A DNA stretch of 39,054 nt from a virus (IMGVR_UViG_2874945390_000007), one strand, 5' to 3'; positions 3,806 through 38,723 are shown, counted from the first letter of the stretch. The notes: a model not told the origin generated them from the sequence alone. Numbers and translations are program-made.

Positions 3806-3854
3806 TCGTGAAGCCCCAGCGTTACAAGACCACCATGCCCCCAGCGTTCCATGA

Positions 3855-20086: not shown

Positions 20087-20171
20087 CGCCGATAAGCGGG
20101 CCATTGAATTACTGGAACAGCGCAGGCTGCAACGACTGAACAACGAGGACAACAACCATGCTGAAAACTGA
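19881..20171 (+). CDS. lysC: o-spanin lipoprotein (Rz1/LysC-like), overlapping lysB in another frame
   Basis: ORF 19851..20171; ATG 19881 gives MHVPALFLTLALLSGCTSTQ... (lipobox LLSGC) and proline-rich body. Confidence 0.65.
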   Translation: MHVPALFLTLALLSGCTSTQNASAPPPSFRFIPEGLTAPVLPPPFPVTPSWGNIGIWSDSLMDALETCNADKRAIELLEQRRLQRLNNEDNNHAEN

Positions 20172-20625
20172 TTCCCTGCGTGAAGCCATGACCCGTTCAT
20201 GCCGGTGGTGTCATGCCAACCCGGAAAAATTCACCATTTTCGTGGAGAGCGGCAACATTGAAACGACCGGAGAAACCCCATCGTTTGTTTACCGCTATCA
20301 GATAGTGATGTTTGTCATGGATTACGCCGGAGAGCTGGACGACCTCACGCTGCCGCTGCTGGCGTGGTTATCCGAAAATCAGCCACAGTTGTTGCTCAAT
20401 CCGGAGCGTAATCAGGACATCAAATTTTCCGCCGTTATCAATGACGATGACAGCGCCGATCTCCTGTTTACGCTCCCCCTGCGGGAACGCGTTCGCATCA
20501 CGCGCAGCAGTCAGGGCACACCGCAGGCAGAACACCTGCCGGAGCCAAAACCCCGCCTGCCCTCTTCCGAAGGCGACTGGTCGCATGTATTCCAGGATGT
20601 GACGTGGGGGGAAAGCGATGGATAA
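20158..20625 (+). CDS. R: tail completion protein, P2 gpR family
   Basis: 155-aa ORF MLKTDSLREAMTRS...LLAWLSENQP... parallels P2 gpR. Confidence 0.8.
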   Translation: MLKTDSLREAMTRSCRWCHANPEKFTIFVESGNIETTGETPSFVYRYQIVMFVMDYAGELDDLTLPLLAWLSENQPQLLLNPERNQDIKFSAVINDDDSADLLFTLPLRERVRITRSSQGTPQAEHLPEPKPRLPSSEGDWSHVFQDVTWGESDG

Positions 20626-21253
20626 GGCATTCACCCGCGTGGATGAAACCTTTGAGGCTATCCGCGACAGCCTGAATCAGCAGGCCATTAATAACATCGC
20701 CAGAAAGCTGGCACAGGATTTACGCCGCGCCCAGCAGGCGCGTATCCGGTCACAGAAAGCGCCGGACGGGACCGCATGGACACCACGCAGACGCCGCGTA
20801 ACCCGGATACAGGAGCGCATTCGCTTTATCTGGAATAACGAAGCACGCACGCTGAAAAACTGGCATCACGACACGGGGAAATACGGGCGAACCATCACCG
20901 GGTGGGATGAGGATAAAAACAATATCCGCACGTTTTACCGGGATGACATCGACCGTTTTCTGGAAATACGCACCCGGCGCATCAACCAGGACAGCACCAG
21001 GCGCGTCTCCATGTTCGTAAAACTGCGCACCGCCCGCTACCTGAAAGCCCGTGCAGATGCTTCCGGTGTGACGGTGGGTTACAGCGGCGTGGCCGCACGT
21101 ATTGCACGCGTTCATCAGTTCGGTGAGCGCGATCAGGTTGCGCCGGGCATTTTCACCGATTACCCGGTACGTGAGCTGCTGGGTATCAGCCAGGCAGATG
21201 AGCGCCTGATTTATAACACGGTGCTGGGCCGGATTGCGGAGGCTGTACGATGA
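20618..21253 (+). CDS. S: tail completion / virion morphogenesis protein, P2 gpS position
   Basis: 211-aa ORF between R and V; assignment mainly positional. Confidence 0.6.
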   Translation: MDKAFTRVDETFEAIRDSLNQQAINNIARKLAQDLRRAQQARIRSQKAPDGTAWTPRRRRVTRIQERIRFIWNNEARTLKNWHHDTGKYGRTITGWDEDKNNIRTFYRDDIDRFLEIRTRRINQDSTRRVSMFVKLRTARYLKARADASGVTVGYSGVAARIARVHQFGERDQVAPGIFTDYPVRELLGISQADERLIYNTVLGRIAEAVR

Positions 21254-21831
21254 GCGCAGAACTCATGCGACTGCTGAGCAATATCATCCGCACCGGGATC
21301 ATCTCTGAAGTTGATGAGGAATCCTGGTGCGTGCGCGTTCGCAGCGGCGAACTGGAAACAGGCTGGCTGCGCTGGAACACCACGCGCGCGGGAGACTTCA
21401 ACGTGTGGTTTCCGCCATCACCAGGCGAACAGGTGGCAATTGCCTGCATCGGCGGCAACCCGGAAACCGCCATGATAATCGGCAGCCTGTGGAGTGATGC
21501 CATTCCGGCACCCGGCAAAAGCCTGAAAGAAATCGTGGTCAGCGCGCCGGACGGCGCGGTGTTCCGCTACGACGCGGACGCAGGCGCACTGAGCGCAAGC
21601 GGCATGAAAACGGCCACTTTGCAGGCATCCATCAGCGTGACACTGAACACGCCTGTCGTGGAATGCACAGACCTTCTGAGAACAGCGACGCTTGACGTCA
21701 CAAAAGGGGGAACGATGAGCGGCAATATCACGCACAGCGGCGGCGATTTCACCTCAAACGGCATCACAGTGCATACGCATAAGCACGGTGGCGTTAAAGG
21801 TGGCAGCGATTCGACAGGAGGCCCGCAGTGA
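21250..21831 (+). CDS. V: baseplate spike/assembly protein, P2 gpV family
   Basis: 193-aa ORF; order V-W-J-I conserved. Confidence 0.8.
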   Translation: MSAELMRLLSNIIRTGIISEVDEESWCVRVRSGELETGWLRWNTTRAGDFNVWFPPSPGEQVAIACIGGNPETAMIIGSLWSDAIPAPGKSLKEIVVSAPDGAVFRYDADAGALSASGMKTATLQASISVTLNTPVVECTDLLRTATLDVTKGGTMSGNITHSGGDFTSNGITVHTHKHGGVKGGSDSTGGPQ

Positions 21832-23603: not shown

Positions 23604-25640
23604 ATGAGTACCACAACACGAAAATTTAAAACCATTATCACCGATACGGGTGCAAAAAAATTAGCGCAGGCAACCGCGCCAGATGGGAAACCTGTCCGCC
23701 TGACACATATGGCCGTGGGTGACGGCGGCGGTACTTTACCCACGCCAGACAGTAAGCAGACCCGTCTTGTGCATGAGGTGTGGCGACATACCGTTAATCG
23801 CGTCACCCTGGACGCAACACATCAGAACCACATTATTGCGGAGCTGGTTATTCCTCCTGAAACGGGCGGATTCTGGATCCGGGAAATTGGTGTGTTTGAT
23901 GAGCACGGCGATTTGATCGCGGTAGGCAATACTGCCGAAAGTTACAAGCCAACCGTTGCCGAAGGATCCGGACGTGCACAAACATTTCGCACCATTCTGA
24001 CCGTATCCAGCACTGCCACTGTGGCGCTTACCGTGGATAACACCATGGTGATGGCCACAGTGAATTACGTGGATGACAAACTGAAAGAGCATGAACAGTC
24101 ACGACGTCACCCGGACGCCTCGCTGACCGCAAAAGGCCTTGTCCAGCTCAGCAACGCCACCAACAGCACGTCTGAAACGCTGGCAGCGACACCAAAAGCC
24201 GTTAAGGCAGTAATGGATGAAACGAACAAGAAAGCCCCATTAAACAGCCCGGCACTGACCGGAACGCCAACAACACCAACTGCGCGACAGGGAACGAATA
24301 ATACCCAAATCGCAAGCACGGCTTTCGTTATGGCTGCGATTGCCGCACTTGTAGACTCTTCGCCTGATGCACTGAACACACTGAACGAGCTGGCGGCGGC
24401 GCTGGGCAACGACCCGAATTTTGCGACCACCATGACTAACGCGCTTGCGGGTAAGCAACCGAAAGATGCCACTCTGACGGCGCTGGCGGGGCTTGCTACT
24501 GCGGCAGACAGGTTTCCGTATTTTACGGGGAATGATGTCGCCAGCCTGGCAACCCTGACAAAAGTCGGGCGGGATATTCTTGCGAAATCGACCGTTGCCG
24601 CCGTTATCGAATACCTCGGTTTACAGGAAACGGTAAACAAGGCTGGTAACGCCGTGCAAAAAAATGGCGATACGTTGTCCGGTGGACTTACTTTTGAAAA
24701 CGACTCAATCCTTGCCTGGATTCGAAATACTGACTGGGCAAAGATTGGGTTTAAAAATAATTCGGATGCAGACACCGATTCCTACATGTGGTTTGAAACA
24801 GGCAACAACGGCAATGAATATTTCAAATGGAGACACCGCATCATTGGCACCCGGCCTAAAGACCTGATGAATCTTAAATGGAATGCTTTGTCTGTTCTTG
24901 TTGAAGCCCTTTTCAGCAGTGAAGTGAAAATATCGACAGTCAATGCACTGAGGATATTTAATTCATCTTTTGGTGCCATTTTTCGTCGTTCTGAAGAATG
25001 CCTGCATATCATCCCTACACGAGAGAATGAAGGGGAAAATGGTAATATAGGGCCACTACGCCCCTTTACGCTTAATCTCAGAACTGGCCGGATAAGCATG
25101 GGGCATGGTCTTGATGTTACAGGGGATATATTTGCAAACCGTTTTGCAATTAACAGTAGTACCGGCATGTGGATTCATATGCGTGACCAGAATGTTATTT
25201 TGGGACGTAATGCGGTATCCACTGATGGTGCTCAGGCTTTGCTCCGTCAGGACCATGCCGACCGCAAATTTATGATTGGCGGTCTGGGAAATAAGCAATT
25301 TGGCATCTACATGATTAATAACTCAAGGACAGCCAATGGCACCGATGGTCAGGCGTACATGGATAATAACGGGAACTGGCTTTGCGGCTCGCAAGTTATT
25401 CCCGGCAACTATGGCAATTTTGATTCCAGATATGTGAAAGATGTTCGACTTGGTTCACAGCAATATTATGGAGTGAACAACTGGCAAACATGGAATTTTC
25501 AGTGCCCGTCAGGCTATGTACTGACGGGGATTAACGTACAGGATACCGGAAAAAACTCTGCCGATAATATTGCAGGCGTTCATTACAGGCCAGTGCAAAA
25601 GTATATAAATGGCACTTGGTATAATGTGGCGAGTATTTAA
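23604..25640 (+). CDS. H: tail fibre protein H (constant N-terminal part plus currently expressed variable C-terminal part)
   Basis: 678-aa [25 protein letters not shown]... matching P2 gpH N-terminus; crossover site lies inside the gene at 24604..24629. Confidence 0.9.
24604..24629. repeat. left crossover site for DNA invertase (gix/pix-like), inside gene H
   Basis: ttatcgaatacctcggtttacaggaa; reverse complement ttcctgtaaaccgaggt... shares 17 nt with right site and 12/12 with the Mu gix half-site TTCCTGTAAACC. Confidence 0.8.
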
Positions 25641-25641
25641 T

Positions 25642-26169
25642 ATGATGCACTTAAAGAACATAAAAGCAGGTAATGCTAAAACAGTGGAGCAGTATGAGTT
25701 AACAAAGAAGCACGGAGTCATCTGGCTTTACTCTGAGGACGGAAAAAACTGGTATGAGGAAGTGAAGAACTTTCAGCCAGACACAATAAAGATTGTTTAC
25801 GATGCAAATAATATTATTGTCGCCATCACCAAAGATGCCTCCACGCTTAACCCTGAAGGTTATAGCGTCGTTGAGGTTCCTGATATTACAGCAAATCGTC
25901 GTGCTGATGATTCCGGTAAGTGGATGTTTAAGGACGGAGCTGTGGTTAAACGGATTTATACGGCTGACGAACAGCAACAACAGGCCGAATCACAAAAGGC
26001 CGCATTGCTTTCCGAAGCTGAATCAGTCATCCAGCCGCTGGAACGCGCTGTCAGGCTGAATATGGCGACGGACGAGGAACGCACACGACTGGAAGCATGG
26101 GAACGCTACAGTGTTCTGGTCAGCCGTGTGGATACGGCAAAGCCAGAATGGCCACAAAAGCCTGAGTAA
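25642..26169 (+). CDS. G: tail fibre assembly chaperone (Tfa / P2 gpG-like), active-orientation copy
   Basis: ORF 25609..26169; ATG 25642 ([40 protein letters not shown]...). Confidence 0.85.
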
Positions 26170-26174
26170 AAATT

Positions 26175-26194
26175 AAGGCCCGATATCGGGCCTT
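26175..26194. terminator. bidirectional hairpin between convergent tfa genes
   Basis: 20-bp perfect palindrome aaggcccgatatcgggcctt between stops of 25642..26169 (+) and 26198..26731 (-). Confidence 0.55.
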
Positions 26195-26197
26195 GTT

Positions 26198-26731
26198 TCA
26201 TTCTGGTTGTTCGGGAAACGTTACTGGCAGGCTGGAGGTGTCTGTGGATTCGACCTTCTGCGCATAGAGCATCCACTCGGTTAATTTTTGTTTATTCTCG
26301 TCGGAAATAATGCCCAGCCGTAGCTGTGAGTCCCATAGCTGGGTTTTATCCCTGACGAGCTGTAGCAGGCTTTGCTTTTCATTTTCCGCTTGTTGCCTCT
26401 GCTCTTCCCCGGTATAAGTTCGCTTTATCACTACGCCATCTTTGAACATCCATTTACCTGAAATATCAGCCCGGCGATTTGCTGTAATATCAGGAACCTC
26501 AACGACGCTTGCGCCTTCCGGATTAATTGCTGAAACATCCTTTTCAATACAAATAATAACGCCGTTGTGGTCATAGACCATTTTCAACGTATCAGGCTGA
26601 AAGTTCTTTTGTTCCTCATACCAGTTTTTCCCATCCTCTGTATAAAGCCATTTGATGTTAAATTGTTTCGTTAGCTGGTATTGCTCTTTTGTTTCAGGAT
26701 TACCAGCAGAAATGTTTTTTAAGTGCATCAT
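26198..26731 (-). CDS. alternative tail fibre assembly chaperone (Tfa'), silent-orientation copy
   Basis: 177-aa [43 protein letters not shown]... paralogous to the plus-strand Tfa with divergent C-terminus. Confidence 0.85.
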   Translation of the reverse strand: MMHLKNISAGNPETKEQYQLTKQFNIKWLYTEDGKNWYEEQKNFQPDTLKMVYDHNGVIICIEKDVSAINPEGASVVEVPDITANRRADISGKWMFKDGVVIKRTYTGEEQRQQAENEKQSLLQLVRDKTQLWDSQLRLGIISDENKQKLTEWMLYAQKVESTDTSSLPVTFPEQPE

Positions 26732-26733
26732 CG

Positions 26734-27678
26734 TTAAATACTCCCCGCGTTATACCACGTCCCATTAATGCAATACTGAATTGGCCTTGCCTGAGTTGTA
26801 TCAATTAGTTCATCTCTGTTTGAGTTAACGGAACCGGTAACAACATAACCTGACCTGTCAGACCATCCGGGACCATTCCATGTCTGAACAGATAACAGAC
26901 CACCAAGGCGAATACCTGTAATAAACCTTGAGTTACATTCTGCCTGCGTATATGCACCAACATCTCCCGCAGAGGGTTTGCGGGTTGTGGTGTAAAACTC
27001 TGACCAGTCAGCTTCAAAGCCATAACCATCACGCGCTGAACGATAAAAAATACCGCCGTTCCTGTAATTCACGCGGAACTGTACAGCAGGGCAGCTCCCC
27101 GTATTCATATTGAAGTGGAGGATTAATGTCGATGCGCCACCAATGTTTGCGTTATAGACCCCGCTATTCCAGTTCCAGCCAACAGCTTTATCATTTCCGA
27201 CAGTGCTTCCTGTTTGCCCTAAAGCAAATGCAGGTTGTTGATTTTTCGTGTTGTAGTCTCGTCGCCAGCCAGGAGCGTAAGCATCACCATGATTAATATA
27301 AGTGAATTGAGCGTTAGTAATTCCGCCACCGCTGGACGTGCTCGGCGTGGTAACGCGTATGGTCATTGCGCCGCGAGTGCCAATAACTTCCACCACAGCA
27401 CCTGCAAGACAAATATTTCCGCAACCTGTATCTGTAATGACCTTATTATTTGCATAAGCCCATGAGCCTTTGCACATCCAGTAAGGATGGTTAAATGCTC
27501 CCTGACTCTCCAGCCACGAAATAAATTGCGCGGTTGTCCAGACCTGACTATCGCCACCAATATTCAGCCATGAGCTATATGCGCGGCAGGCACCAATATT
27601 TTTGGTGAAGGTATCTTTCCCCGGAATATCTGCGCCGTTCTGGTTTTTCTGTAATGCGCCAGAAGCCTGATTTACCGT
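26734..27678 (-). other. alternative tail-fibre C-terminal cassette (H variable part, silent orientation; no own start)
   Basis: Minus-strand frame ...LQETVNQASGALQKN...CINGTWYNAGSI is collinear with the H region after the crossover site but has a different receptor-binding C-terminus; ORF-track N-terminal extension to 27834 reads through the crossover site into the IS and is not a real start. Confidence 0.8.
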
Positions 27679-27704
27679 TTCCTGTAAACCGAGGTTTGAG
27701 GTGT
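27679..27704. repeat. right crossover site for DNA invertase (gix/pix-like)
   Basis: ttcctgtaaaccgaggtttgaggtgt; inner half-site identical to left site in inverted orientation, outer half-site more degenerate. Confidence 0.75.
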
Positions 27705-27739
27705 ACTGGCAATAGCGGACACTACCATTTGTTCTTTTT

Positions 27740-28558
27740 TTAAGCAGCCATCTGATGATATTTTTCCCTGAAGGCTGCCGGGGAGATATTCCCCAGACGA
27801 GAGTGACGACGCTGACGATTGTAGAAAATCTCAATGTATTCCCGTATTACTGAGATGGCTTCATCCCGGTTATTAAAACGATAGTGGCTCAGGCTCTCAT
27901 TTTTCAGCGTTCCCCAGAAGCTTTCCATCGGAGCGTTGTCGTAACAGTTACCTTTACGCGACATTGATGTTTTCAGACCAAACTGCTCCTGTATGACCCG
28001 GTAATCGTATGCGCAGTACTGTGAACCTCGATCAGAGTGGTGGATTAGCCCGGCAGGTGGGCGCTGGCTCCTGAGCGCCATAAACAGGGCTTTACCTGTC
28101 AGCTCTTTTGTCATGCGCTCTCCCATGGCGTAGCCGACAATTTCGCACGTATAAACATCTTTGATGCCAGCGAGGTACAACCATCCCTCCTGTGTGGCAA
28201 CATACGTCAGGTCCGCCACCCAGACCTGATTTGGTGCTGTAGGAGCGAACGTCTGGTTCAGCAGATTTGGCGCAACTGGCAGATTGTGGTTCGAGTTCGT
28301 AGTCGCTCTGAACTTGCGTTTCTGCTTACAGCGTAGCCTTAGCTCCTTACGAAGACGTGCCAGTCGGTCACGACCAACGATGATGCCATTCTCTGCCAGC
28401 TCCGTCTGGAGCCGCCGGGTTCCATATGTTTCGCGAGTGCGGATATGTGCCACCTTAATCTCCAGTTTTAGCCGCTCATCACTTTGTTTTCTGTCTGAGG
28501 GTTCATGCTGTACCCAGTTGTAATAACCGCTCCTGGATACACCAAATACCTGACACAT
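27740..28558 (-). CDS. IS3-family transposase OrfB (catalytic DDE domain; expressed as OrfAB fusion by -1 frameshift)
   Basis: 272-aa ORF with ...VWVADLTYV...GWLYLAGIKDVYT...HHSDRGSQY...CYDNAPMESFWGTLK... typical IS3 OrfB. Confidence 0.9.
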   Translation of the reverse strand: MCQVFGVSRSGYYNWVQHEPSDRKQSDERLKLEIKVAHIRTRETYGTRRLQTELAENGIIVGRDRLARLRKELRLRCKQKRKFRATTNSNHNLPVAPNLLNQTFAPTAPNQVWVADLTYVATQEGWLYLAGIKDVYTCEIVGYAMGERMTKELTGKALFMALRSQRPPAGLIHHSDRGSQYCAYDYRVIQEQFGLKTSMSRKGNCYDNAPMESFWGTLKNESLSHYRFNNRDEAISVIREYIEIFYNRQRRHSRLGNISPAAFREKYHQMAA

Positions 28559-28593
28559 CGCTTCAATGGGAAATTGTTGTCGCCATTGTTCGA

Positions 28594-28896
28594 TTAACGC
28601 GTATTTTTCAGCGACTCCTGTGCAAAATACGCTGTTGCTTTTTTTAATATATCTCGCTCAAGGCGAGCTTCATTTAACGCCTTACGCAGTTGCAGAATTT
28701 CAGATTCCAGTTCAGCCACCGTGCGGGAACCAGGAGTACCGAGCCCTTTTCTGGCGGCGGTAACCCATTGTCCTAAAGTGCCTTCAGGAAGAGATAATCG
28801 GGAAGCGCCTTCACTGATCGAAAGTTGATTTTCAAGAACCGTTCTGACAGCTTCGGCTTTGAACTCTTTAGAGTAACGTTGGGTTTTTCTGCTCAT
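28594..28896 (-). CDS. IS3-family transposase OrfA (HTH/leucine zipper)
   Basis: 100-aa ORF MSRKTQRYSKEFKAEAVRTVLENQLSISEGA...; slippery TTA AAA AAA GCA near its 3' end (complement of 28638..28649). Confidence 0.9.
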   Translation of the reverse strand: MSRKTQRYSKEFKAEAVRTVLENQLSISEGASRLSLPEGTLGQWVTAARKGLGTPGSRTVAELESEILQLRKALNEARLERDILKKATAYFAQESLKNTR

Positions 28897-29025
28897 TATT
28901 AGCTCCTTCTGATGCCATTCTATTTCAGGAAGGAGTGTCCGTTAAACTCAGGCTACCTCAGTTTTAGATAATGGCCGTTTCCGGCCTGCATGGCATGATT
29001 TGCGCTTTTGGACGGGAGATTCAGC

Positions 29026-29613
29026 GTGCTGATTGGCTATGTAAGGGTATCAACAAATGACCAGAATACAGACCTGCAACGAAACGCTCTTGTTTGTGCA
29101 GGATGTGAACAAATATTTGAAGATAAATTAAGCGGGACAAAGACAGACCGACCGGGATTAAAACGCGCTTTAAAGCGCCTTCAAAAAGGTGACACGCTGG
29201 TTGTCTGGAAACTGGATCGCCTCGGGCGAAGCATGAAACATCTGATTTCTCTCGTCGGGGAACTACGGGAGCGAGGAATTAATTTTCGCAGTCTGACCGA
29301 CAGCATAGATACATCTTCTCCAATGGGGCGTTTTTTCTTCCACGTGATGGGTGCCCTGGCTGAAATGGAACGTGAATTAATTGTTGAACGTACACTGGCC
29401 GGACTGGCGGCAGCACGCGCACGGGGGCGCACAGGCGGACGTCGACCGAAGCTGACAAAAGAACAGCATGAGCAAATAGCAAGGCTGATCAAAAACGGGC
29501 ACGACAGAAAACAACTGGCAATAATTTACGGCATTGGTATATCGACGATTTATCGTTACCACCCCGCAGGAGAATCAATCGGAACAATAGAGAAGAGTCA
29601 GGAAACAAAATAA
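29026..29613 (+). CDS. pin: serine DNA invertase, Pin/Gin/Hin/Cin family
   Basis: ORF 29008..29613 (TTG); preferred GTG start 29026 giving (M)LIGYVRVSTNDQNTDLQRNAL...LVVWKLDRLGRSMKHL...GINFRSLTDSIDTSSPMGRFFFHVMGALAEMERELIVERT... nearly collinear with e14 Pin; catalytic Ser in YVRVST. Confidence 0.92.
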   Translation: MLIGYVRVSTNDQNTDLQRNALVCAGCEQIFEDKLSGTKTDRPGLKRALKRLQKGDTLVVWKLDRLGRSMKHLISLVGELRERGINFRSLTDSIDTSSPMGRFFFHVMGALAEMERELIVERTLAGLAAARARGRTGGRRPKLTKEQHEQIARLIKNGHDRKQLAIIYGIGISTIYRYHPAGESIGTIEKSQETK

Positions 29614-29641
29614 CCGCTAATCTGACCATTAGCGGTTTTTG
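29613..29641. terminator. hairpin terminator between convergent pin and U
   Basis: accgctaat-ctgacc-attagcggt followed by ttttt; complement side also followed by a T-rich tract. Confidence 0.6.
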
Positions 29642-29648
29642 TGTTAAA

Positions 29649-30143
29649 TCAGAACAACCCTTTAACTGAACTGGCCGCGCTGTTAAGGGATGATGTTACC
29701 TTATCTTTGAAGCCGGACAGCATATCGCTGAACGATGAGGATTGCAGGCGCTCCCGCAAATCCTCATCACAGCGTTCAAGAGTCAGTGAAAATTCTATCT
29801 TTTTCGCCTTACCGTAGCGATCAAACTCGGAGCGGGTCGTATTCGTTTCGGTCAGGACATACATGCCGTAAATCTGCCCGACGCCATCAATCAGAGGCCA
29901 GGGTCGTCCTGTATACGCCTGCGTGGTCAGCAGCGACAGCGACACTTCGCCACCTGTAATTTCAGGATAAAGCACACCAGAAAGAACGATGCGCTCATCA
30001 CCTGCACCGATATACTGCCAGCTTGCCGAACGGTTAACGCGTTCATTTTTCACATGCCGCCAGCTTTTGTTTTGCTGTAACTGCTGATGCGGCAATGTAC
30101 GCAGCTCAAAAACAAACATGCCGTAGATCATCATCATGGCCAT
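29649..30143 (-). CDS. U: tail protein U
   Basis: 164-aa ORF ...FVFELRTLPHQQLQQNKSWRH...GRPWPLIDGVG... resembling P2 gpU. Confidence 0.8.
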   Translation of the reverse strand: MAMMMIYGMFVFELRTLPHQQLQQNKSWRHVKNERVNRSASWQYIGAGDERIVLSGVLYPEITGGEVSLSLLTTQAYTGRPWPLIDGVGQIYGMYVLTETNTTRSEFDRYGKAKKIEFSLTLERCDEDLRERLQSSSFSDMLSGFKDKVTSSLNSAASSVKGLF

Positions 30144-30149
30144 GACTCC

Positions 30150-32993
30150 TCAATCTTTATCGTAAAAACTGCCACGCCCGGCACGGGCGCGCCGTTCCAT
30201 TTCTGCCCTGACCATTTCACCGACCAGTTTCGCCAGTTCGCGGGGATTCTGCGTAACAACGTTATGCAGATGAACATGAATTTCACCACCAAATCCGGAG
30301 GCAACAGGCTCCCGGTTACGGGAAGTTACAGGAACTGATGCCACTGGAGAGCGTATGGCCTCCGCCACCGGGCGGGAGCTGGCCGCAACAACAGGGACCA
30401 GCGCCGGAGGCAGCGGAGCCGGGACCACGGGTGTGATATTAATTGCGGGGGCAGGCTTACTGACCTGCGCAATCTTCCGCTCCTGCCACTCCCCACGAAC
30501 AGCAAGTGCGCGGGGCAGGTTCTTAAAGACAATATCGCCGGGGCCAATGCGTTTTTTCGTCTCATCAACCAGCTTACCTGTGTTATCAGCAATTTTGCTG
30601 AGTCTGCGTAGCGTCCCGGTATTGCTGTCTGTGAGCGGTTTGTTGTCTTTGGGTTTATCACCTCCGGTGCCATTGCCATTTTCCACAGGCTTCGGCGGAT
30701 TGATTTTCGCCAGGTTCCCCTGAAGCAAGGCAACCTTGTCCTGAAGAATGGCCGCACGCTGTGCGTCTTCGATTTTCTTGCGCGCCCTTTCCGCTTCATC
30801 CGGAAGGACGCCAAGTTTTTCAAGTATCCACGCCAGCGTATCCAGTAGCATTTTTGCAGGTGTCAGAACAAGTTGTAACGCACCGCCAAGAACGTTACCG
30901 AATATCTCGCCAGCACTGGCACATTTATCCAGCGTTTCCTTGCTGGACTCCATCGGTGACAGCAGCGATTTAAACCAGTTAAAGACCTGAATAATCCCAT
31001 CGCGCACGACATCAAAAACAGGGCCAAACCGTTCAAAGGTTTCGCGCAACGGGGTCAGCCTTTCCATAATCCCGCTGAACACCCCGGCAAAAAATGCCCT
31101 GATGGGATCCCAGTATTTCCAGATAAGAACGGCAGCTCCGGCAAGCGCAGCCACGATAAGACTAACCGGACTGAACAGCGCCCCGATAGCGCCACCAAGT
31201 AAAGAAACGGAACCCGTCACCATTCCCCATAATGCAGGCAGAACCCTGACAACATTCATTGATTCGGTCAGGAGAGAAAAACCGAGACGCAACGTAGCCA
31301 GCTTCCCGTGAAGCACCCCAATAACCAGAGACAACGAACCAACCGTTGCTGTTGTCGCCAGCAGTGCGCCTCCCGCTATCAGTAACTGGCGCGTCAGTGC
31401 CGGGTGGGCCTGCGCCAGCGCCGTCACCTTTGAGACAACCCGCGTGAGCCACTGCGTGACAGAACGCAGCGGACCGTCAACCAGATCACTGATGCGAATA
31501 CGCAGACCTTCCCATGCACTGCCGAGTGATTTCAGGTTGCCATCAAGGTTATTGGCCATAACCTTTGCCGTGCGTTCTGCCTCACCGCGCGCGCCTTCAA
31601 GTTCTTTTCTCAGTTTGGCTAAGAAGCCGTCACCTGCCGCATCAACGAGGCCCATAAATGATGTGAAAGCCTCTTCTCCGGCAATGTCCTTAAAGAACGA
31701 TACCCGGTCAACCTCCCCGTATTTGCGGGTGGCTTTATAGAGATCGGCCAGCACATTCTCCATCGGGCGCATTTTGCCTTTGGCGTCAGCAACTGACACC
31801 CCCAGCTCTTTCAGTGCTTCTGCCGCTGCCTTTGGCGGTGATGACAGATTGGCCAGGCTTTTACGCAACGCTGTACCTGCATCACTCCCCCTGATACCCA
31901 TCTTCGCCAGCACGCCCGCCATCGCTGCGGCCTGCTCCAGCGATATTCCCAGCTTACCCGCCACCGGACCTGCATATTTCATGGTTTCGCCCAGTGCGCG
32001 AAGGTCAGTGTTGGTACGGGTAAACGCTGCGGTAAGTGTGTCACCGACCCGGTCCATCTGGTCAGCAGAGAGGCCGAACTGCGTCAGGATATTGGAACCA
32101 ATATCCGCCGTCTCGCCGAGGTCCATACCGCCAGCCGTTGCCATGCTCAGCACGCCGGGAAGCGCAGCCTGAATGGCCTGCGGTGTGAAACCAGCCATTG
32201 CAAGAAATGCCTGTCCACTGGCGGCATCGCCTGCGGTGAACTGCGTTTCAGAGCCAAGTTTTAACGCCTGCTCACGCAGCGCCTTAAACTGCGGGCTGTT
32301 TTTATCGATTCGCGTCAGTGCCTGAACACGGGACATCTCTTTCCCGAACCCGATAGCGGGCTGCAAAAAACGCCCGGCAGCATAGCCGCCCGCTGCCGCC
32401 GCACCTGTTGCCAGCGCACCACCTGTTTTCAGTTTTCCCGCTGTTTCCTGCGCGCGTGAATACCGCTCACGCGCCTGCGTTACACGCGCAAGCGCCCGCC
32501 GTTCGCGTTCAAGCTGGTTGTTGTATTGTCCGGTGCGTCTGATGGCCTGCTGGATGGTGTTATCGCTGCCTGTCAGGGAAATGCCGTGGCGTTTCAGCTC
32601 TCCGCCAAGTTCCCGCATTTTCTGAATTTCCCGTGTGCGCGATTCATTCAGGCGTTCAAGCCGGGTGCTTAACTGCTGCATCAGCTTTTGTTGTTTTTCG
32701 CTGAGCACTGTACCCGTGCGTTGTAACTGATTAAGGGCGTTAAGCTGGCGTCGTGCTTTCACGATGCCCGCATCCGCTTTACTGACAGCGTCACGGGCGC
32801 GCTCAAATGAACGCGCCTGACGCTCGAGATTTTTGATCGCCCCCTGCGTTCGCTGGATGGAGTCACCAAACTGCCCCATCAGGCGGCGGGCGTTTTCGGC
32901 AGGCCGGGTCAGCCTGTCAACGGCGCTGAAAGCGACCCGGATATCAAGAGTCTTCATTGTCTGCATTCCCGCTGCGAAGTGCCGCCCGCTCAC
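30150..32993 (-). CDS. T: tail tape measure protein T
   Basis: 947-aa ORF, helical/Ala-rich with central hydrophobic segment; position between E/E' and U. Confidence 0.88.
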   Translation of the reverse strand: MSGRHFAAGMQTMKTLDIRVAFSAVDRLTRPAENARRLMGQFGDSIQRTQGAIKNLERQARSFERARDAVSKADAGIVKARRQLNALNQLQRTGTVLSEKQQKLMQQLSTRLERLNESRTREIQKMRELGGELKRHGISLTGSDNTIQQAIRRTGQYNNQLERERRALARVTQARERYSRAQETAGKLKTGGALATGAAAAGGYAAGRFLQPAIGFGKEMSRVQALTRIDKNSPQFKALREQALKLGSETQFTAGDAASGQAFLAMAGFTPQAIQAALPGVLSMATAGGMDLGETADIGSNILTQFGLSADQMDRVGDTLTAAFTRTNTDLRALGETMKYAGPVAGKLGISLEQAAAMAGVLAKMGIRGSDAGTALRKSLANLSSPPKAAAEALKELGVSVADAKGKMRPMENVLADLYKATRKYGEVDRVSFFKDIAGEEAFTSFMGLVDAAGDGFLAKLRKELEGARGEAERTAKVMANNLDGNLKSLGSAWEGLRIRISDLVDGPLRSVTQWLTRVVSKVTALAQAHPALTRQLLIAGGALLATTATVGSLSLVIGVLHGKLATLRLGFSLLTESMNVVRVLPALWGMVTGSVSLLGGAIGALFSPVSLIVAALAGAAVLIWKYWDPIRAFFAGVFSGIMERLTPLRETFERFGPVFDVVRDGIIQVFNWFKSLLSPMESSKETLDKCASAGEIFGNVLGGALQLVLTPAKMLLDTLAWILEKLGVLPDEAERARKKIEDAQRAAILQDKVALLQGNLAKINPPKPVENGNGTGGDKPKDNKPLTDSNTGTLRRLSKIADNTGKLVDETKKRIGPGDIVFKNLPRALAVRGEWQERKIAQVSKPAPAINITPVVPAPLPPALVPVVAASSRPVAEAIRSPVASVPVTSRNREPVASGFGGEIHVHLHNVVTQNPRELAKLVGEMVRAEMERRARAGRGSFYDKD

Positions 32994-33473
32994 GCCAGCT
33001 AACCACTTCGCCGGGCGTCATCATGAAGATTTCGGCGGGCGACCAGTTAAAAATGGCGGCAATATCCGCCACAAAGTCTTCTATGTGCTCAAAGCACACA
33101 ACCGTGATCAGGCTTCCGTCGCCTGTTCGTTCTTCTCGCCAGAGTCCGCACCGCTCAAAAAATTTACGGCAACCACACATAACTGAATAAAGTCACGGGA
33201 TGCCATTTTTTTGATCGTCACTTCATCCAGTCGCGGTGATGTCACGCGTGACAGCAGCGTAAACATGGATTCCGCTTTCAAATTCAGCACATCAGACAGC
33301 GACAAATCTCGCAGAGATCCAGCCTGCTCAATAGCCCCGGTGATCTCCACATACGTGATTTTTTCGCCGCCTCGCTCAATTGGTTGGGTAAGTTTTACGC
33401 CACGCTCACTGGTTTCTTTCACAGTGTCAGCAACGACCGTGTTTTCGGTATCGATGTTTTTCGTCTCTTTCAT
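32944..33473 (-). CDS. E+E' programmed -1 frameshift product
   Basis: Minus-strand -1 frame ORF (32944..33180 in track) continues from the A7 slippery run inside E and overlaps the start of T, as for P2 E/E' and lambda G/GT. Confidence 0.6.
33108..33473 (-). CDS. E: tail assembly chaperone E
   Basis: 121-aa ORF upstream of T; contains slippery A7 run (complement of 33204..33212). Confidence 0.75.
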   Translation of the reverse strand: MKETKNIDTENTVVADTVKETSERGVKLTQPIERGGEKITYVEITGAIEQAGSLRDLSLSDVLNLKAESMFTLLSRVTSPRLDEVTIKKMASRDFIQLCVVAVNFLSGADSGEKNEQATEA

Positions 33474-33527
33474 CAGGAAACTCCTTTCAGTCAGAGGCGA
33501 CGCACTGCGCCGCCTGCATATTACTTA

Positions 33528-34040
33528 TCAGCCAAGCCCGAGCGCGGAACGGATGCGATCGGGCACAATGTCCCTGCCGTCCTTCCGGTAAATGAAGTTC
33601 AGCAGGTCAATCTCCCACAACGGGCGATCGTTAACACTCAGCTTGTAGTAGGTGTTTTTAATGGCGTAAGTGTGTGATGTGGCTTCGCCCTGTTTGGCTT
33701 CCCCCATATCAATTTCCGTCACACGTCCGCGCATTTCGACTTCATACAGGTCGCTTTCAGCGTCGGTGTAGTATTCACCCGCAAAACGCAGCAGCGTACC
33801 GTCAATCGTGCCGCCATACTTAAGGAACAGCTCACGAACTGCGCCCCCCATGACAAAGCTCGCATCAAGCGCGGAGTCATCCAGGCCGAGATCAATACTT
33901 ACCGCTCCCATCATGCCACCACCCCGGTAGCTGTCGGTTTTGCGCGTCAGCTTAGGCAGAGTGACGGACGTCACCTTACCCACTTCGTTTTCACCATCCA
34001 CAAACAGCGTAAAAAAGCGAAGATGTTTTGGTACAGCCAT
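33528..34040 (-). CDS. FII: tail tube protein FII
   Basis: 170-aa ORF; size and position as P2 FII. Confidence 0.85.
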   Translation of the reverse strand: MAVPKHLRFFTLFVDGENEVGKVTSVTLPKLTRKTDSYRGGGMMGAVSIDLGLDDSALDASFVMGGAVRELFLKYGGTIDGTLLRFAGEYYTDAESDLYEVEMRGRVTEIDMGEAKQGEATSHTYAIKNTYYKLSVNDRPLWEIDLLNFIYRKDGRDIVPDRIRSALGLG

Positions 34041-35224
34041 CAGGCACCTCCCAGCACCGCAAATGCGGGACCAAAGAATTCATCAGTAAACGACTGGTAA
34101 AGCTCCATGTCTTCCAGCGGGGGAACAGGCGTATATTTGTAGCGAATACGCACGCGCCCCTGACGTAAATTCGTGGTGCCGTTATCCACCACGTCATACC
34201 AGCACGACGCCCCAATCAGTTTCCCGGCAGTAACCAGTGAATCCAGTTTTGCCCTGATGGCACCGATAACATCCTTCACGTTCGCAGGCGTCAGTGGACT
34301 GTCGATGGTTTCAAACTGCGCTTCCGCAATTGAATCAGCCAGCACCTGTGCGGTTCGGGTATACACCTCAAAGATGTAGGCGTTCGTTTCCGGTGTGCGG
34401 TTGCCCCAGAAGCGGAACCCGTTGCGACGAATAATGGTCGTGATTTCTTTGTTGTTGAGGCTGTTGGCATCACTGTCTTCGGCCTGCAACGACCAGAACA
34501 CATGCCTGGACATCCCCAGCACATTTTTAACCGGAACGTTGGACAGCGATTTGTGCCAGCCCTGCTCATGGTCAATGTACGCACGAAGGCCGCACGCATA
34601 GGCAGGCGCGGGGAACGTTTCGTTTTTGCCACTTTTCGGGTTGTAGGCGATGAAGTCCGGCCATAAGAGCATCACCTCACGTTCGTTGAATTTCTGGCGG
34701 TAGGTAATTGCCTCAGCCATCGTGTTACAGTCATGACATGAGGCATACACAAACGCGCGCAGTTTACCCGCAATCACGCACAGGGATTTTGTCACCGCCT
34801 CCGTGTCCAGCTCCGGCGCGGCCAGAATACGCGGACGGTATCCGATGCTTTCATCCTGCTCTGCAACAAGCAGCGCATACATCCCCGTATAGCTGCCGTC
34901 AGATTCAGAACCACCGATAACCAGTTGATCCTGCGTTTTTCCGTCTTCTTCTTTGTGTTCAGCCACGCGAACGACGATCACCTTTGTGCTCACCTGGTCT
35001 GCGATGGCCTTAAGCGCACGATAAAGCGTCCCCGTTGTTCCGCATTTTCCCAGCACGTCATTGACGCGGGGCAGCAGTGTGGGCTTGTTCAGCGGGAACA
35101 GCTCCGCGTCCGCATCATCCGCCGTTGCCACGATACCGATAACGCTGGAATCAACATCGTTAATCGCTGTTACCAGGTCGGTATTTTCCGTAACACGGGC
35201 ACCATGAAAACGAGTTTCACTCAT
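34040..35224 (-). CDS. FI: contractile tail sheath protein FI
   Basis: 394-aa ORF with ...FPLNKP..., ...KLRAF..., ...LLWPDF..., ...DHEQGWHKSLSNV..., ...IRRNGFRFWGNRT..., ...YTRTAQV..., ...YKYTPVPPLE... matching P2 gpFI. Confidence 0.92.
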   Translation of the reverse strand: MSETRFHGARVTENTDLVTAINDVDSSVIGIVATADDADAELFPLNKPTLLPRVNDVLGKCGTTGTLYRALKAIADQVSTKVIVVRVAEHKEEDGKTQDQLVIGGSESDGSYTGMYALLVAEQDESIGYRPRILAAPELDTEAVTKSLCVIAGKLRAFVYASCHDCNTMAEAITYRQKFNEREVMLLWPDFIAYNPKSGKNETFPAPAYACGLRAYIDHEQGWHKSLSNVPVKNVLGMSRHVFWSLQAEDSDANSLNNKEITTIIRRNGFRFWGNRTPETNAYIFEVYTRTAQVLADSIAEAQFETIDSPLTPANVKDVIGAIRAKLDSLVTAGKLIGASCWYDVVDNGTTNLRQGRVRIRYKYTPVPPLEDMELYQSFTDEFFGPAFAVLGGA

Positions 35225-35381
35225 AGCTTCAACCCCTTGTATCCGTTAAATGATTCGGCAACAATCATCACCCACCACGCGCGTAATCTCACCCCTGCGC
35301 CATTCTCCCGCCACGGCGACAACAAAAAGCAGTAACCCCCTCCGCACGCACATGCGACCATGCCACACAGGGAGGGAGCAG

Positions 35382-36491
35382 ATGACCGACACCACCATGC
35401 AATTGCTCAGTCAGGGCACAGACCCCGTGAAAATGCCGGATTTTGATATTCTCGCGGAGGGTAAAACGCTGTCAGGCGTGGCAGAGCGCCTGATGAGCCT
35501 GTCACTGACCGACAACCGGGGATTTGAGGCGGACCAGCTCACCATCACGCTGGATGATGCGGATGGTCAGTTGCAGCTACCGCCACGGGGCGCGCGCCTG
35601 ACGGTTCTCATTGGCTGGAAGGGAGAACCGCTGACAGAAAAAGGCACTTACATTGTTGATGAAATCGCTCACGAAGGACCGCCGGACAGGCTGACTGTTT
35701 CAGCCAGAAGCGCAGATTTTCGGGCTGAATTTAACGTTAAACGTGAGGTGTCCTGGCATGATGTGACCGTTGAGCGTGTGGTATCCGCCATCGCTCATCG
35801 GTATGGTCTGAAACCGCAAATCAGCGAAATGCTGATGGATATCGAAATCGACCACGCCGACCAGACCGAAGAAAGCGACATGTCCTTCCTTACGCGCATG
35901 GCGGAAATGCTGGGCGCAATCACCACGGTAAAAAGCGGTAATCTGTTATTCATCATGCCCGGTGGTGGCGTGAACGCACAGGGCCAGCCGTTGCCCTCGT
36001 TCGCCATCACACGCAGCAGCGGCGATCGCCATCAGTTCCGCATTGCTGACCGCGAAGCGTATACGGGGGTACGCGCTTACTGGCTTGATCTTAATTACGG
36101 GAAAAAGAAAAAAGTCAGCGTGAAACGCCGCAAACCGTCAAAACCAAAAAAGGAGAAAAGCAGCAGCCGGGAAGGCGACTATATGGAAGGTGCGGAAGGC
36201 AACGTGTTTGTGTTACGCAAAACTTATCAGAACGAGCAGGCAGCAAGACGTGCAGCGGCGGCAAAGTGGCAGCAGCTACAACGCGGAGCCGCATCATTCT
36301 CCATCACACTGGCGCATGGACGTGCAGAACTCTACCCCGAAATGCATGGCACGGTAACAGGATTTAAAAGCGAGATTGATAATCAGGACTGGATTATTGC
36401 AAAAGCCGAGCACACCATTGATAACAGCGGCTTTACCACGCAGCTTGAGCTTGAGGCAAAAATCCCGGAATGGATAGCAGAAACAGAGTGA
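35382..36491 (+). CDS. D: tail protein D
   Basis: ORF 35250..36491; ATG 35382 (MTDTTMQLLSQGTDPVKMPDFDILAEGKTLSG...) preceded by GGGAGGGAG; about 369 aa. Confidence 0.85.
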   Translation: MTDTTMQLLSQGTDPVKMPDFDILAEGKTLSGVAERLMSLSLTDNRGFEADQLTITLDDADGQLQLPPRGARLTVLIGWKGEPLTEKGTYIVDEIAHEGPPDRLTVSARSADFRAEFNVKREVSWHDVTVERVVSAIAHRYGLKPQISEMLMDIEIDHADQTEESDMSFLTRMAEMLGAITTVKSGNLLFIMPGGGVNAQGQPLPSFAITRSSGDRHQFRIADREAYTGVRAYWLDLNYGKKKKVSVKRRKPSKPKKEKSSSREGDYMEGAEGNVFVLRKTYQNEQAARRAAAAKWQQLQRGAASFSITLAHGRAELYPEMHGTVTGFKSEIDNQDWIIAKAEHTIDNSGFTTQLELEAKIPEWIAETE

Positions 36492-36716
36492 GCAACTTAA
36501 ATGTATTAACTCAGAACGGATCAACACACTCACAACATAGAGTCAATATAGCTGCTCGCTTTGTTCCAGCAAGGATGCCTATTTCTAAGGAAAAACAGAG
36601 CAGAAACATATGGTGTTTTCCTACCTGACATCAGGGGTGGTAAGAATCATGCTTTGATAACCAATTGATAACTATTATTATATTAATCTAACACCATTGA
36701 CATAGTTGAGGTTTGA

Positions 36717-38219
36717 ATGAACAAAAAGCTGTATTTATTCCCAGACTCAAACATTTTTCTACAATGCAAGGACTTGACGCAGGTAAATTTTTCCGAGATT
36801 ACTGCTTGTGATGAAGTATGTATCATTATTACAAGGCCCATTCAGCAAGAGATTGACCGCCAGAAAGGGCAAGGTAATTCCCGCCTATCCAAAAAAGCAA
36901 GGAAGGCTGCTAGCCTATTTAATCAAGTAGTTGATTCAACTGACATGACTCTTGTTATTCGTGAACGCTCGCCGCGAGTTTTTCTTACCATGGATCTAAG
37001 CCTGAAACCATGTGAACAGTTATCTGAACAATTGGATTATCAGGAGGCCGACGATCGTTTTGTTGGTATTGCGGCAGGGTATTGCGCTGACGATCCAGAT
37101 TCGGAGGTGGCAATCATTACCAATGATAGCGGTCCACGTTTTTCAGCAATAAAACATAATATAATCTGCTATAAAGTGCCTTCTTCATGGTTGCTTCCTG
37201 CTGAGCCAGATGAAAAGGATAAACAAATTAAATTGCTGGAAGCTAAGCTGAAGCAATTCACTCAGTCTATGCCCGATTTCAGCATTAAAGTAGCCGATGA
37301 CGAGCAATTAAATATTGTACTTCCTTATTATACAGCTTTATCTGAATATGAAGTTGATAATTTGCTTTGTCAACTAACGGATGCATTCCCATTGGTTACA
37401 AACTTTGACAATGAACAAACTACCCCACAATCACTAGAAAAAATCATCAAGTCATTTAGTCAACAGGAGTATTTCCCTGTATCAGCAGATGATATTTCTC
37501 TTTATAAAGAAAAACATTATCCACTTTGGAAAAAGCAGTGTGAAGAAATACTGAAAAACTGTCATACTCATATTAATCCGAAGGCAATAAATTACCCGCT
37601 GTCGTTTTTATTACAAAACACAGGTTATACTATCGCTGAACGTGCTGTGGTAACATTTACAGCAAAAGGAGATTTTCGTCTGTGTGGATTTAATTGGGAG
37701 ATAATGGAAGAGCTGACTGAAAGCAAAAGGATTGACCTACCTTCAGCCCCTACCGCCCCCAAAGGAAAATGGCGTAGTGTATGTGGCGTAACAGAAAGAA
37801 TGCCTTACGCTGGGGGAGCTTTGGAAACACCGCTATCCAGTATAATTTCAAAAGAAATTGGTCCTTTGTTATCTCTTACTCCAACAGAAAGGGATAAAAA
37901 CGATTTTTATTATAAAGAAAAGAGAAATGAGCCAGTTCAAGTTGTATCGCTGGAATGCGAAGAGTGGCGTCATCAAGTCAAAGAAGAAATATTCCCGTTG
38001 TTCGTATATACAGCCAACAAACCAAAGAAAGTGAATGGTGCAATTGAGGTGAGAGTTGATGCAAATAACCTTACCAATCCGGTCATTAAAACATTTAAAT
38101 TAAAAATAACTATAGAAGAACATAGTGCATTTTCAACCATAACAGAAATGGTGCAGACATACATTCAAGAGCAGAAGAAAAGACAGAAAAGTTCTATTAG
38201 CGCACAAATCAAAACATGA
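36717..38219 (+). CDS. PIN-like nuclease domain protein (N-terminal PIN fold, about 350-aa C-terminal region of unknown function); candidate defence gene
   Basis: 500-aa ORF; N-terminus MNKKLYLFPDSNIFLQ... (first acidic residue), ...QQEIDRQ..., ...DDRFVGIAAGY..., ...VAIITNDSGP... fit the four-acidic-residue PIN pattern; visibly AT-rich relative to flanking D and ogr; AT-rich promoter-like upstream region with TTGATA hexamers. Confidence 0.6.
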   Translation: MNKKLYLFPDSNIFLQCKDLTQVNFSEITACDEVCIIITRPIQQEIDRQKGQGNSRLSKKARKAASLFNQVVDSTDMTLVIRERSPRVFLTMDLSLKPCEQLSEQLDYQEADDRFVGIAAGYCADDPDSEVAIITNDSGPRFSAIKHNIICYKVPSSWLLPAEPDEKDKQIKLLEAKLKQFTQSMPDFSIKVADDEQLNIVLPYYTALSEYEVDNLLCQLTDAFPLVTNFDNEQTTPQSLEKIIKSFSQQEYFPVSADDISLYKEKHYPLWKKQCEEILKNCHTHINPKAINYPLSFLLQNTGYTIAERAVVTFTAKGDFRLCGFNWEIMEELTESKRIDLPSAPTAPKGKWRSVCGVTERMPYAGGALETPLSSIISKEIGPLLSLTPTERDKNDFYYKEKRNEPVQVVSLECEEWRHQVKEEIFPLFVYTANKPKKVNGAIEVRVDANNLTNPVIKTFKLKITIEEHSAFSTITEMVQTYIQEQKKRQKSSISAQIKT

Positions 38220-38462
38220 GGGTGTACTCAAATAATACAATGCTATAGTAAATCTATAAGTGCATAACTATTTCCTGATCTTTTCCCAAAATAGATGACA
38301 GGATAAAAAACATTCCAATCTTTTACAGGCTTTGGATAAATCGTATCAAAGCCTATTTCTTCAAGAGTTAAATCACCGCTTTTCGCTCGAAACGGACTGG
38401 CTGTTGGAGTATGAGCCAGAACAACTTAGAATAGCCCCTGCACTACGTTAAGGGAGGTCGCT

Positions 38463-38723
38463 ATGTTCCGTTGTCCGCTTTGTGGCGCATCTGCCCGTAT
38501 CCGCACCAGTCGTCCGGAAAATGATTCAAACACCGTGCGGCAAAAGTATTACCAGTGTAACAATCTGGAATGCGGCGTATGCTTCTCAACACTGGAAGCT
38601 TTCCATAAATTCACATCAAAACACGCCTCCGGCGTTCACTCTTCAGAAGATATCCCGTGGCATGATCTGCCAGCTTCACACAGGGGAAACAATCAGATGA
38701 GCTTGCCTTTACCTCAGAATTAA
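38463..38723 (+). CDS. ogr: late gene transcriptional activator, Ogr/Delta zinc-finger family
   Basis: 86-aa ORF MFRCPLCGASARIRTSRPENDSNTVRQKYYQCNNLECGVCFSTLEAFHKF... with CxxC...CxxxxC as in P2 Ogr. Confidence 0.9.
   Translation: MFRCPLCGASARIRTSRPENDSNTVRQKYYQCNNLECGVCFSTLEAFHKFTSKHASGVHSSEDIPWHDLPASHRGNNQMSLPLPQN

Follow-up and report, generated by a model that had tools for sequence, protein, structure and literature searches.

The Inverted FI to U Tail Block of a P2-like Prophage Is an Established Layout of Xuanwuvirus and Its Sister Genera and Adjoins a Predicted Two-Way Late Promoter

Gene Content of the Tail Region

The window, the whole stretch of viral DNA that was analysed, is 39,054 nucleotides in length. 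The tail genes U, T, E/E', FII, and FI (29649-35224) are all located on the minus strand, with a plus-strand invertase gene at the left and a plus-strand D gene at the right.

The left neighbor of the block is a serine DNA invertase gene of the Gin/Pin type (29008-29613, plus strand). It matches PHROG_125 DNA invertase (E 1e-96), contains the Pfam Resolvase and HTH_7 domains, and is annotated as the same gene in the same place in P88. By comparison with P88, its likely start is the GTG at 29026.

The gene for a gpU-like tail protein (29649-30143, minus strand) matches PHROG_76 tail protein (E 8e-75). It is adjoined by the tape measure gene T (30150-32957, minus strand), which matches PHROG_28 tape measure (E 6e-212). 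The T ORF extends to a GTG at 32993, and the length of T in P88 points to 32957 as the likely start. The tail chaperone gene E (33108-33473, minus strand) matches PHROG_103. A -1 frameshift at the slippery heptamer TTTTTTG (33156-33162) gives access to E', which ends at 32944, for a combined E and E' extent of 32944-33473; the Pfam domain Phage_P2_GpE is found on the ORF of the -1 frame.

The tail tube gene FII (33528-34040, minus strand) matches PHROG_55 (E 2e-59). PHROG_55 is mislabelled "head closure", and the P2 FII CDS, which is given as a tail tube protein in its note, bears the same PHROG-style label. The tail sheath gene FI (34040-35224, minus strand) matches PHROG_23 tail sheath (E 4e-124). 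A 157 bp divergent spacer (35225-35381), a putative two-way Ogr-dependent late promoter, separates FI from D.

The gpD gene (late control D / baseplate hub; 35382-36491, plus strand) matches PHROG_52 (E 1e-166) and Pfam Phage_GPD. The ATG at 35382 is most likely its start, rather than 35250. The ribosome-binding site GGGAGGGAG precedes 35382, and the resulting 369-aa form of D shows 99% identity to a cluster in which 6052 protein sequences are grouped. An ogr-like late activator gene (38463-38723, plus strand; Pfam Ogr_Delta zinc finger, E 5e-14) is located downstream of D. A cargo insertion parts the two genes in the window, while in most relatives ogr directly follows D, approximately 1.1 kb from the D start.

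The gene content of the canonical P2 F operon is therefore present, with seven products including the E/E' -1 frameshift chaperone. Its layout is not, in that D is on the strand opposite to FI to U and adjoins FI, not U. The order of the lineage represented by the window reads V, W, J, I, H, G, the invertible fibre segment, and the invertase, converging on U, T, E'/E, FII, and FI, with D diverging from FI and followed by the cargo and ogr. This order is regarded as likely to be correct jointly with the whole of the explanation given below.

The Hairpin between the Invertase and U

A hairpin resembling a two-way intrinsic terminator is found at 29612-29637, between the stop codon of the invertase and that of U. 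It is composed of a 10-bp stem and a 6-nt loop, with T-runs on both strands. The RNA fold energy is -15.7 kcal/mol for the plus strand and -16.1 kcal/mol for the minus strand, with z values of -4.1 and -4.5, respectively. The hairpin is identical in P88. The invertase is missing from SEN4, 3LV2017, and phiT5282H; at the G/U junction of these phages, just past the U stop, there is a different strong hairpin, rich in GC and bordered by A/T tracts. The presence of a hairpin in each lineage fits a need to halt two converging transcripts. The first-pass annotation, made from the sequence of the window, had proposed a convergent terminator at this position, and the stem, the T-runs, and the fold energy are consistent with such a role.

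Gene Order in P2

In P2 (NC_001895), the genes FI, FII, E, E', T, U, D, and ogr are co-directional with V-W-J-I-H-G. The contrast with P2 that was drawn in the first-pass annotation is borne out by this record, and the gene identities and strands of the block are confirmed by the PHROG and Pfam results. The description of V to G and FI to D as a single late operon does not hold; the P2 record shows two operons, with promoters pV and pF and a terminator between them. Canonical order is also found in Burkholderia phiE12-2, Mannheimia 1152AP, and Ralstonia RSY1.

Close Relatives of the Prophage

An 11-kb query over the region shows 96% identity to Escherichia phage P88 (Xuanwuvirus, NC_026014) and also matches P884B11, Citrobacter phage phiSM, 500465-2, 520873, PhiR44_2, and Chuche. 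The part of the window reaching from the invertase gene through D (28961-36499) aligns with P88 in one colinear 7540-bp blastn alignment with 96.5% identity. Over the whole prophage, alignment with the closest relatives, which had been suggested as a check, shows colinearity with P88 throughout (blastn). The aligned part amounts to 29,165 window bases, or approximately 78% of the prophage part, with 91-98% identity.

The ICTV genus-level threshold is approximately 70% identity x coverage to the type phage. Both nucleotide similarity (the 29,165 bases aligned to P88) and the order and strands of the tail-region genes place the window in Xuanwuvirus. Taken together with the rest of the explanation, it is quite probable that the window is a P88-like prophage of the genus Xuanwuvirus, family Peduoviridae.

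The first-pass annotation had treated the orientation of the block as an anomaly. Two functional phages have exactly this orientation, and the anomaly reading is abandoned. P88 is described as mitomycin C-inducible and plaque-forming, with a burst size of approximately 65 and virions imaged by electron microscopy (PMC5285337). phiSM is described as a temperate, plaque-forming phage with spontaneous release and the ability to lysogenise E. coli K-12 (PMC6456863).

Distribution of the Inverted Layout

The FI-D junction was searched for in 5426 complete E. coli genomes with a 1.2 kb probe, and was counted as intact when at least 80% of the probe was covered in one piece. It is intact in at least 1109 genomes (about a fifth), with 95-99% identity. 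Approximately 270 partial matches, mostly from O157:H7, were sampled; these cross the junction too, with the break located inside D. The junction between the invertase and U is intact in 621 E. coli genomes.

The recurrence of both junctions bears on the possibility, raised in the first-pass annotation, that the block was mis-oriented during assembly. The departure from P2 order is the sole point in favor of an assembly artefact. The junctions recur in hundreds to more than 1000 independently assembled complete genomes and in phages sequenced from virions, and the junctions contain no repeats of a kind that would confuse assembly. With so many independent assemblies sharing both junctions, an assembly inversion is ruled out, and practically no probability is assigned to it.

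For a wider survey, D homologues were aligned, one genome was taken per bacterial species, and the best 80 D-match loci were extracted with 10-kb flanks. FI, FII, T, U, D, the invertase, J, I, and ogr were placed by tblastn, with the window and P2 proteins serving as U queries. Among these 80 loci and the phage records, 66 sequences are inverted (FI to U opposite D, with FI adjoining D) and 20 are canonical, the canonical loci being less deeply sampled, since only the top 80 matches to the D of the window were retained.

The inverted layout is found in approximately 29 bacterial genera, most of which have no invertase at that spot. These are Escherichia, Salmonella, Citrobacter, Enterobacter, Klebsiella, Raoultella, Kosakonia, Kluyvera, Yokenella, Trabulsiella, Serratia, Chania, Rouxiella, Hafnia, Edwardsiella, Yersinia, Erwinia, Pantoea, Mixta, Izhakiella, Pectobacterium, Brenneria, Symbiopectobacterium, Dryocola, Xenorhabdus, Photorhabdus, Providencia, Morganella, and Aeromonas (one MAG). 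Among annotated phage records, the layout is present in four ICTV genera: Xuanwuvirus, Senquatrovirus (SEN4), Reginaelenavirus (3LV2017), and Novemvirus (phiT5282H). Fels-2 might have the same layout; no Fels-2 record was present among D matches with at least 60% identity.

Trees were constructed from the D and FI proteins. In both, which are simple neighbour-joining distance trees without bootstrap, rooted on a Burkholderia phage, all 64 of the 64 inverted tips form one clade that contains no canonical tip. Median protein identity is 0.68 within groups and 0.50 between the inverted and canonical groups. The simplest reading of these results would be a single ancient inversion in the ancestor of one enterobacterial P2-like branch. 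Several independent flips within the P2-like phages, or an orientation that still switches, would be easier to accommodate given the limited canonical sample and the simplicity of the trees. The monophyly of the inverted tips in both trees, the difference between the two medians, and the conservation of the junction architecture across the clade argue against repeated or ongoing flipping, which is considered very improbable.

Among the explanations first offered for the block was an arrangement specific to the lineage, with D transcribed from a promoter of its own. The arrangement is supported by P88, by phiSM, by the E. coli genomes with an intact FI-D junction, and by the monophyletic clade of approximately 29 genera; the promoter is predicted.

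Invertase, Insertion Sequence, and Repeats

The invertase gene and an IS3-family element (27697-28960) are both located just left of the block. The IS3-family element lies within the right gix site and is the sole IS copy in the region. Their proximity is the point in favor of a recent inversion of approximately 5.6 kb in this prophage, brought about by the adjacent Pin-like invertase or by the nearby IS, as had been suggested in the first-pass annotation.

An inverted-repeat search located gix-containing repeats only at 24613-24664 and 27644-27695, where they bound the fibre segment. At the ends of the FI to U block (29.6 kb and 35.3 kb), the same search returned only chance-level matches of 26 nt with 73% identity, positioned away from the boundaries; the earlier statement that no obvious inverted repeats occur at the block boundaries thus stands. 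The block does not have the features of a Gin/Pin/Hin-type invertible segment. It is not bounded by 26-bp recombination sites, and close relatives do not show it in both orientations. A single orientation is present in all 64 members of the clade, and all sampled E. coli matches cross the same FI-D junction.

The invertase is present at the junction in only approximately 8 of approximately 60 inverted genome loci and is also present in two canonical loci, which indicates that it is unrelated to the orientation of the block. P88 does not have the IS3-family element and has the same orientation and the same junctions as the window. The orientation is likewise shared by more than 1000 E. coli genomes and by dozens of genera without an invertase at the junction. 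Because most relatives with this orientation have neither the invertase nor the IS, and because the block is not flanked by inverted repeats, gix-like or otherwise, a recent inversion is ruled out for practical purposes; its probability is judged to be negligible.

The FI-D Spacer

The spacer between FI and D contains the dyad TCTCCCGCCACGGCGACA (35304-35321), which has the form TCT-N12-ACA with one mismatch in the left half-site. T(G/C)T-N12-ACA is the known Ogr/Delta site type. The 62 non-redundant FI-D spacers that were aligned are otherwise heavily diverged. In 59 of the 62, the alignment shows a T(G/C)T-N12-ACA dyad at the same place; these related spacers are homologous and not independent, so the motif counts overstate the statistical support, which is partly answered by the 12-nt spacer within the dyad, which varies freely, and by the one-sided control described below. 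The three remaining spacers are two with a CCT left half-site and one with a weak match. The left half-site is TCT, not TGT, in the window and its closest relatives, and for this reason the site emerged only when the related spacers were aligned. An exact search of the window for TGT-N12-ACA gave two matches, both in non-promoter sequence and fewer than expected by chance.

With the dyad as anchor, the aligned spacers show peaks of information content in the half-sites and in two hexamers, one on each side and each exactly 34 nt from the dyad edge. The FI-side hexamer is -10-like and reads GATNAT on the minus strand (GATGAT at 35264-35269 in the window). The D-side hexamer, also -10-like, reads nAnnAT on the plus strand (GACCAT at 35356-35361 in the window). 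Positions A2 and T6 of the -10 (nAnnnT) are kept in 58 of 60 loci on the FI side and in 55 of 60 on the D side. Canonical loci with a recognisable pF dyad were used as a control; 13 of 14 have the hexamer on the side of FI, and 2 of 14 have it on the other side. Transcription is predicted to start near 35257 on the minus strand and near 35368 on the plus strand, 55-56 nt from the dyad center. The predicted leader of D is short, at approximately 14 nt.

Two properties of an Ogr/Delta-dependent late promoter are found here. The predicted site has the dyad type and the spacing, and the cognate zinc-finger activator gene is encoded at 38463-38723. A second dyad of the form TCT-N12-ACA (ACAAAAGC) is located at 15150-15167 in the divergent spacer between P and O (terminase/scaffold), where it marks the other putative two-way late promoter of the window. 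On the plus strand of the whole window, TNT-N12-ACAAYA occurs only at 15150 and 35304; on the minus strand it has one match, inside a tail-fibre assembly gene. A third late promoter was sought upstream of R/S/V with a relaxed scan for the dyad and hexamer, and no intergenic match was found besides P/O and FI/D. S and V overlap.

Because the dyad and the mirrored hexamers match the geometry of the P2 P/O pair, D would have its own late promoter, with an activator site common to FI. The FI to U genes and D would then form divergent late units on one shared predicted Ogr site. The lineage layout may instead be real while D is transcribed from a sigma-70 promoter, from an early or constitutive promoter, or under another regulator, with the spacer elements serving FI only. 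The degenerate TCT left half-site of the window is in keeping with a D gene that does not use the Ogr site. A simple sigma-70 consensus scan of the spacer found nothing convincing and no promoter facing D; this is what is expected of activator-dependent late promoters, and it was also counted under the alternative of a D promoter independent of Ogr. Three observations weigh against that alternative. The nAnnnT hexamer of the D side is at the exact mirror position in most inverted loci, in contrast to the 2 of 14 canonical loci with such a hexamer on the side away from FI. The 55.5 nt from the dyad center to the predicted start equal the distance in the annotated pP/pO pair of P2. D is also a structural baseplate protein that is required simultaneously with FI to U. 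An Ogr-independent D promoter is therefore considered unlikely, and the shared Ogr site is the preferred reading.

Discussion

The inverted block is the established layout of Xuanwuvirus and its sister genera. It is ordinary and is already known from deposited annotations. Titles and abstracts of the literature on Xuanwuvirus and on tail inversion in P2-like phages gave no account of the tail-gene order, and a term search of the P88, SEN4, and phiSM papers returned no discussion of the orientation or inversion of the block.

The explanation preferred here has three parts: the gene order is the normal order of the P88-like lineage, the inversion is old and fixed, and the FI/D dyad acts as a two-way late promoter under Ogr. 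Considered as a whole, this explanation is held with good, though not complete, confidence. One breakpoint of the inversion would have been located between U and D and the other on the upstream side of the FI late promoter, and breakpoints in these positions would have brought the pF activator site beside D. A dyad of the TGT-N12-ACA type is symmetric and could serve promoters on both sides, as the P/O site of P2 does. FI, FII, E/E', T, and U would be transcribed leftward from approximately 35257, ending at the hairpin at 29612-29637. D, and then ogr by read-through, would be transcribed rightward from approximately 35368. Both FI to U and D would be switched on late by Ogr. Binding of Ogr, the transcription starts, termination, and the evolutionary scenario are predictions from sequence, and they are put forward to account for the observed gene identities, strands, hairpin, colinearity, distribution, monophyly, and conservation and geometry of the motif.

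A further step can be proposed. The ancient inversion may have set a palindromic pF site beside D and thereby created a second two-way Ogr-dependent late promoter, with the result that P/O and FI/D together run all of the late genes. The chances of this fuller scenario are put at about even. If it is true, the symmetric activator site would render an inversion that splits an operon immediately tolerable.

It would be wrong to mark the departure from P2 order as a rearrangement, as a sign of prophage decay, or as misassembly. Pipelines and readers that use P2 as the sole template will meet the inverted layout repeatedly. The layout also provides a clean synapomorphy that parts one enterobacterial branch of Peduoviridae from the P2/186 branch. 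The symmetric FI-D spacer offers a testable model for how D could be kept under late control once it is cut from its operon. This two-way late promoter model is the only mildly new part of the analysis, and it places a known device, the P2 pP/pO pair, at a second location.

Comparison with Known Systems

The closest known system is the group of P88 and its relatives (P884B11, 500465-2, 520873, PhiR44_2, Chuche, and phiSM). These phages are 91-98% identical to the window in nucleotide sequence over approximately 29 kb and have the same order and strands in the tail region, together with the same terminator-like hairpin. In the annotations of P88 and phiSM, as in the window, the invertase and D are on the plus strand and U-T-E-FII-FI on the minus strand. 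The window differs from this group in four respects: its integrase and immunity end and its segment of lysis genes are different, the IS3-family element is present within the right gix site, and a 1.9-kb insertion with a PIN-domain ORF lies between D and ogr. The PIN-domain cargo ORF had no PADLOC match.

Senquatrovirus (SEN4/SEN5), Reginaelenavirus (Klebsiella 3LV2017), and Novemvirus (Enterobacter phiT5282H) have G converging on U, T, E, FII, and FI, with D and ogr diverging from FI. Like the window, they contain a dyad between FI and D as well as a hairpin at the point of convergence with U. They differ from it in having neither the invertase nor the invertible fibre segment at the junction, and their D proteins are 62-77% identical to that of the window.

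The 3.1-kb segment of the window at 24613-27695, which contains alternative fibre and assembly genes and has the invertase adjacent to it, is 93-95% identical to the G region of Mu/D108. In the Gin, Cin, and Pin systems of Mu, P1, and e14, only the fibre segment flips. The FI to U block has no recombination sites and lies outside that system.

The late genes of P2 (operons P, O, V, and F) share with the window the set of tail genes, the E/E' frameshift, Ogr, and a dyad upstream of FI. In the P2 record, the -1 frameshift is annotated at 19685, the equivalent of the window site. In P2, FI-FII-E-T-U-D-ogr form one unit downstream of G and Z/fun, whereas in the window FI to U are inverted and D forms a divergent unit of its own. 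The D proteins of the window and P2 are only approximately 50% identical. In P2 the form is TGT...CCA, while the half-site in the inverted clade is TCT or TGT, and the arrangement at FI/D is predicted from sequence. In the P2 reference sites, the dyad center is 55.5-57.5 nt from the annotated starts. P2 has a divergent P/O pair around one activator site, as does the window at its own P/O spacer, where the dyad is a predicted one. The P2 pP/pO pair has one annotated activator site, and its dyad center, as measured here, is 55.5 nt from both annotated starts, so the geometry proposed for FI/D already exists in P2.

Putative Late Promoters and a Possible O-to-G Unit

On the plus strand, the extended dyad motif (TNT-N12-ACAAYA) was found in only two places, the divergent P/O spacer (position 15150, within 15086-15239) and the FI/D spacer (position 35304). 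No separate V-type late promoter was found (20087-21260). The S gene (20618-21253) and the V gene (21250-21831) overlap, as they do in Escherichia phage P88. The O-side late unit in this lineage may therefore extend from O through G.

Left Edge and Segregation Gene

The left edge of the window consists of host sequence, a btuE fragment (1-378) and a btuC fragment (614-1594). To their right are two small ORFs (1787-2825), the prophage integrase (2828-3955), and a repressor-like HTH gene (3855-4268). None of these prophage genes aligns to P88, and the integration and immunity end is therefore exchanged relative to that phage.

A ParM-type actin-like segregation gene is located at 9500-10459 and matches Pfam StbA_N and ParM_N, two domains whose current annotation is as the two halves of ParM (N- and C-terminal). 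In P88, which has a ParM-type gene too, the next gene carries a partition-protein annotation. The gene hints that P2-like phages carrying it may persist in a plasmid state.

Cargo between D and ogr

A low-GC insertion (36500-38422, GC about 39-45%) lies between D and the late activator gene ogr. It contains an ORF (36717-38219) encoding a 500-aa protein with a PIN_4 domain at its N-terminus; PHROG and PADLOC searches of this protein returned no match. The insertion is absent from P88, while Citrobacter phage phiSM has a different cargo in the same interval, composed of a TagO-like gene and one hypothetical gene. In most relatives D is followed directly by ogr, with no insertion. The interval resembles a slot for variable cargo, perhaps of defence genes.

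Related Records

In the GenBank record of phiSM (OR565851, Citrobacter phage Shae_phiSM), the sheath gene is labelled “late control gene D protein” and gene D is labelled “ogr/Delta-like zinc finger family protein”. The tails of phiSM have been described as long and non-contractile, of the siphovirus type (PMC6456863). That description is at odds with the genome, in which genes for a sheath and tube of the P2 type are present.

A 226-kb contig labelled Vagococcus sp. WN89Y, a Firmicute (NZ_JBQPOM010000071.1), carries a prophage with the same tail layout as the window and a D 98% identical to its counterpart here. Contamination or a mislabelled assembly probably accounts for this. In genomes of E. 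coli O157:H7 (example, NZ_CP017669.1), one copy of the FI-D junction matches the 1.2-kb query only as far as query position 950, which is inside D. These genomes may thus share what is left of a truncated P88-like prophage, conserved among them.

Invertible Tail-Fibre Segment

The fibre segment (24613-27695) contains alternative fibre C-termini and assembly genes, is bounded by gix-like arms (24613-24664 and 27644-27695), and is adjoined by the invertase gene. The right gix-like recombination site is split by a 1264-bp IS3-family element (27697-28960) with orfA at 28594-28896, orfB at 27740-28558, and a 3-bp target duplication, GTT. Copies in Stx2a-converting phages are 99.6-99.8% identical to this element. 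The insertion also cuts the invertase gene off from its upstream sequence, and the present orientation of the segment is probably locked.

The segment and its invertase share 93-95% DNA identity with the G region of Mu and D108, and 88-94% identity with the C segment region of P1, P7, and D6. Together they are a mobile host-range module held in common with these phages, in a phage that is otherwise P2-like.
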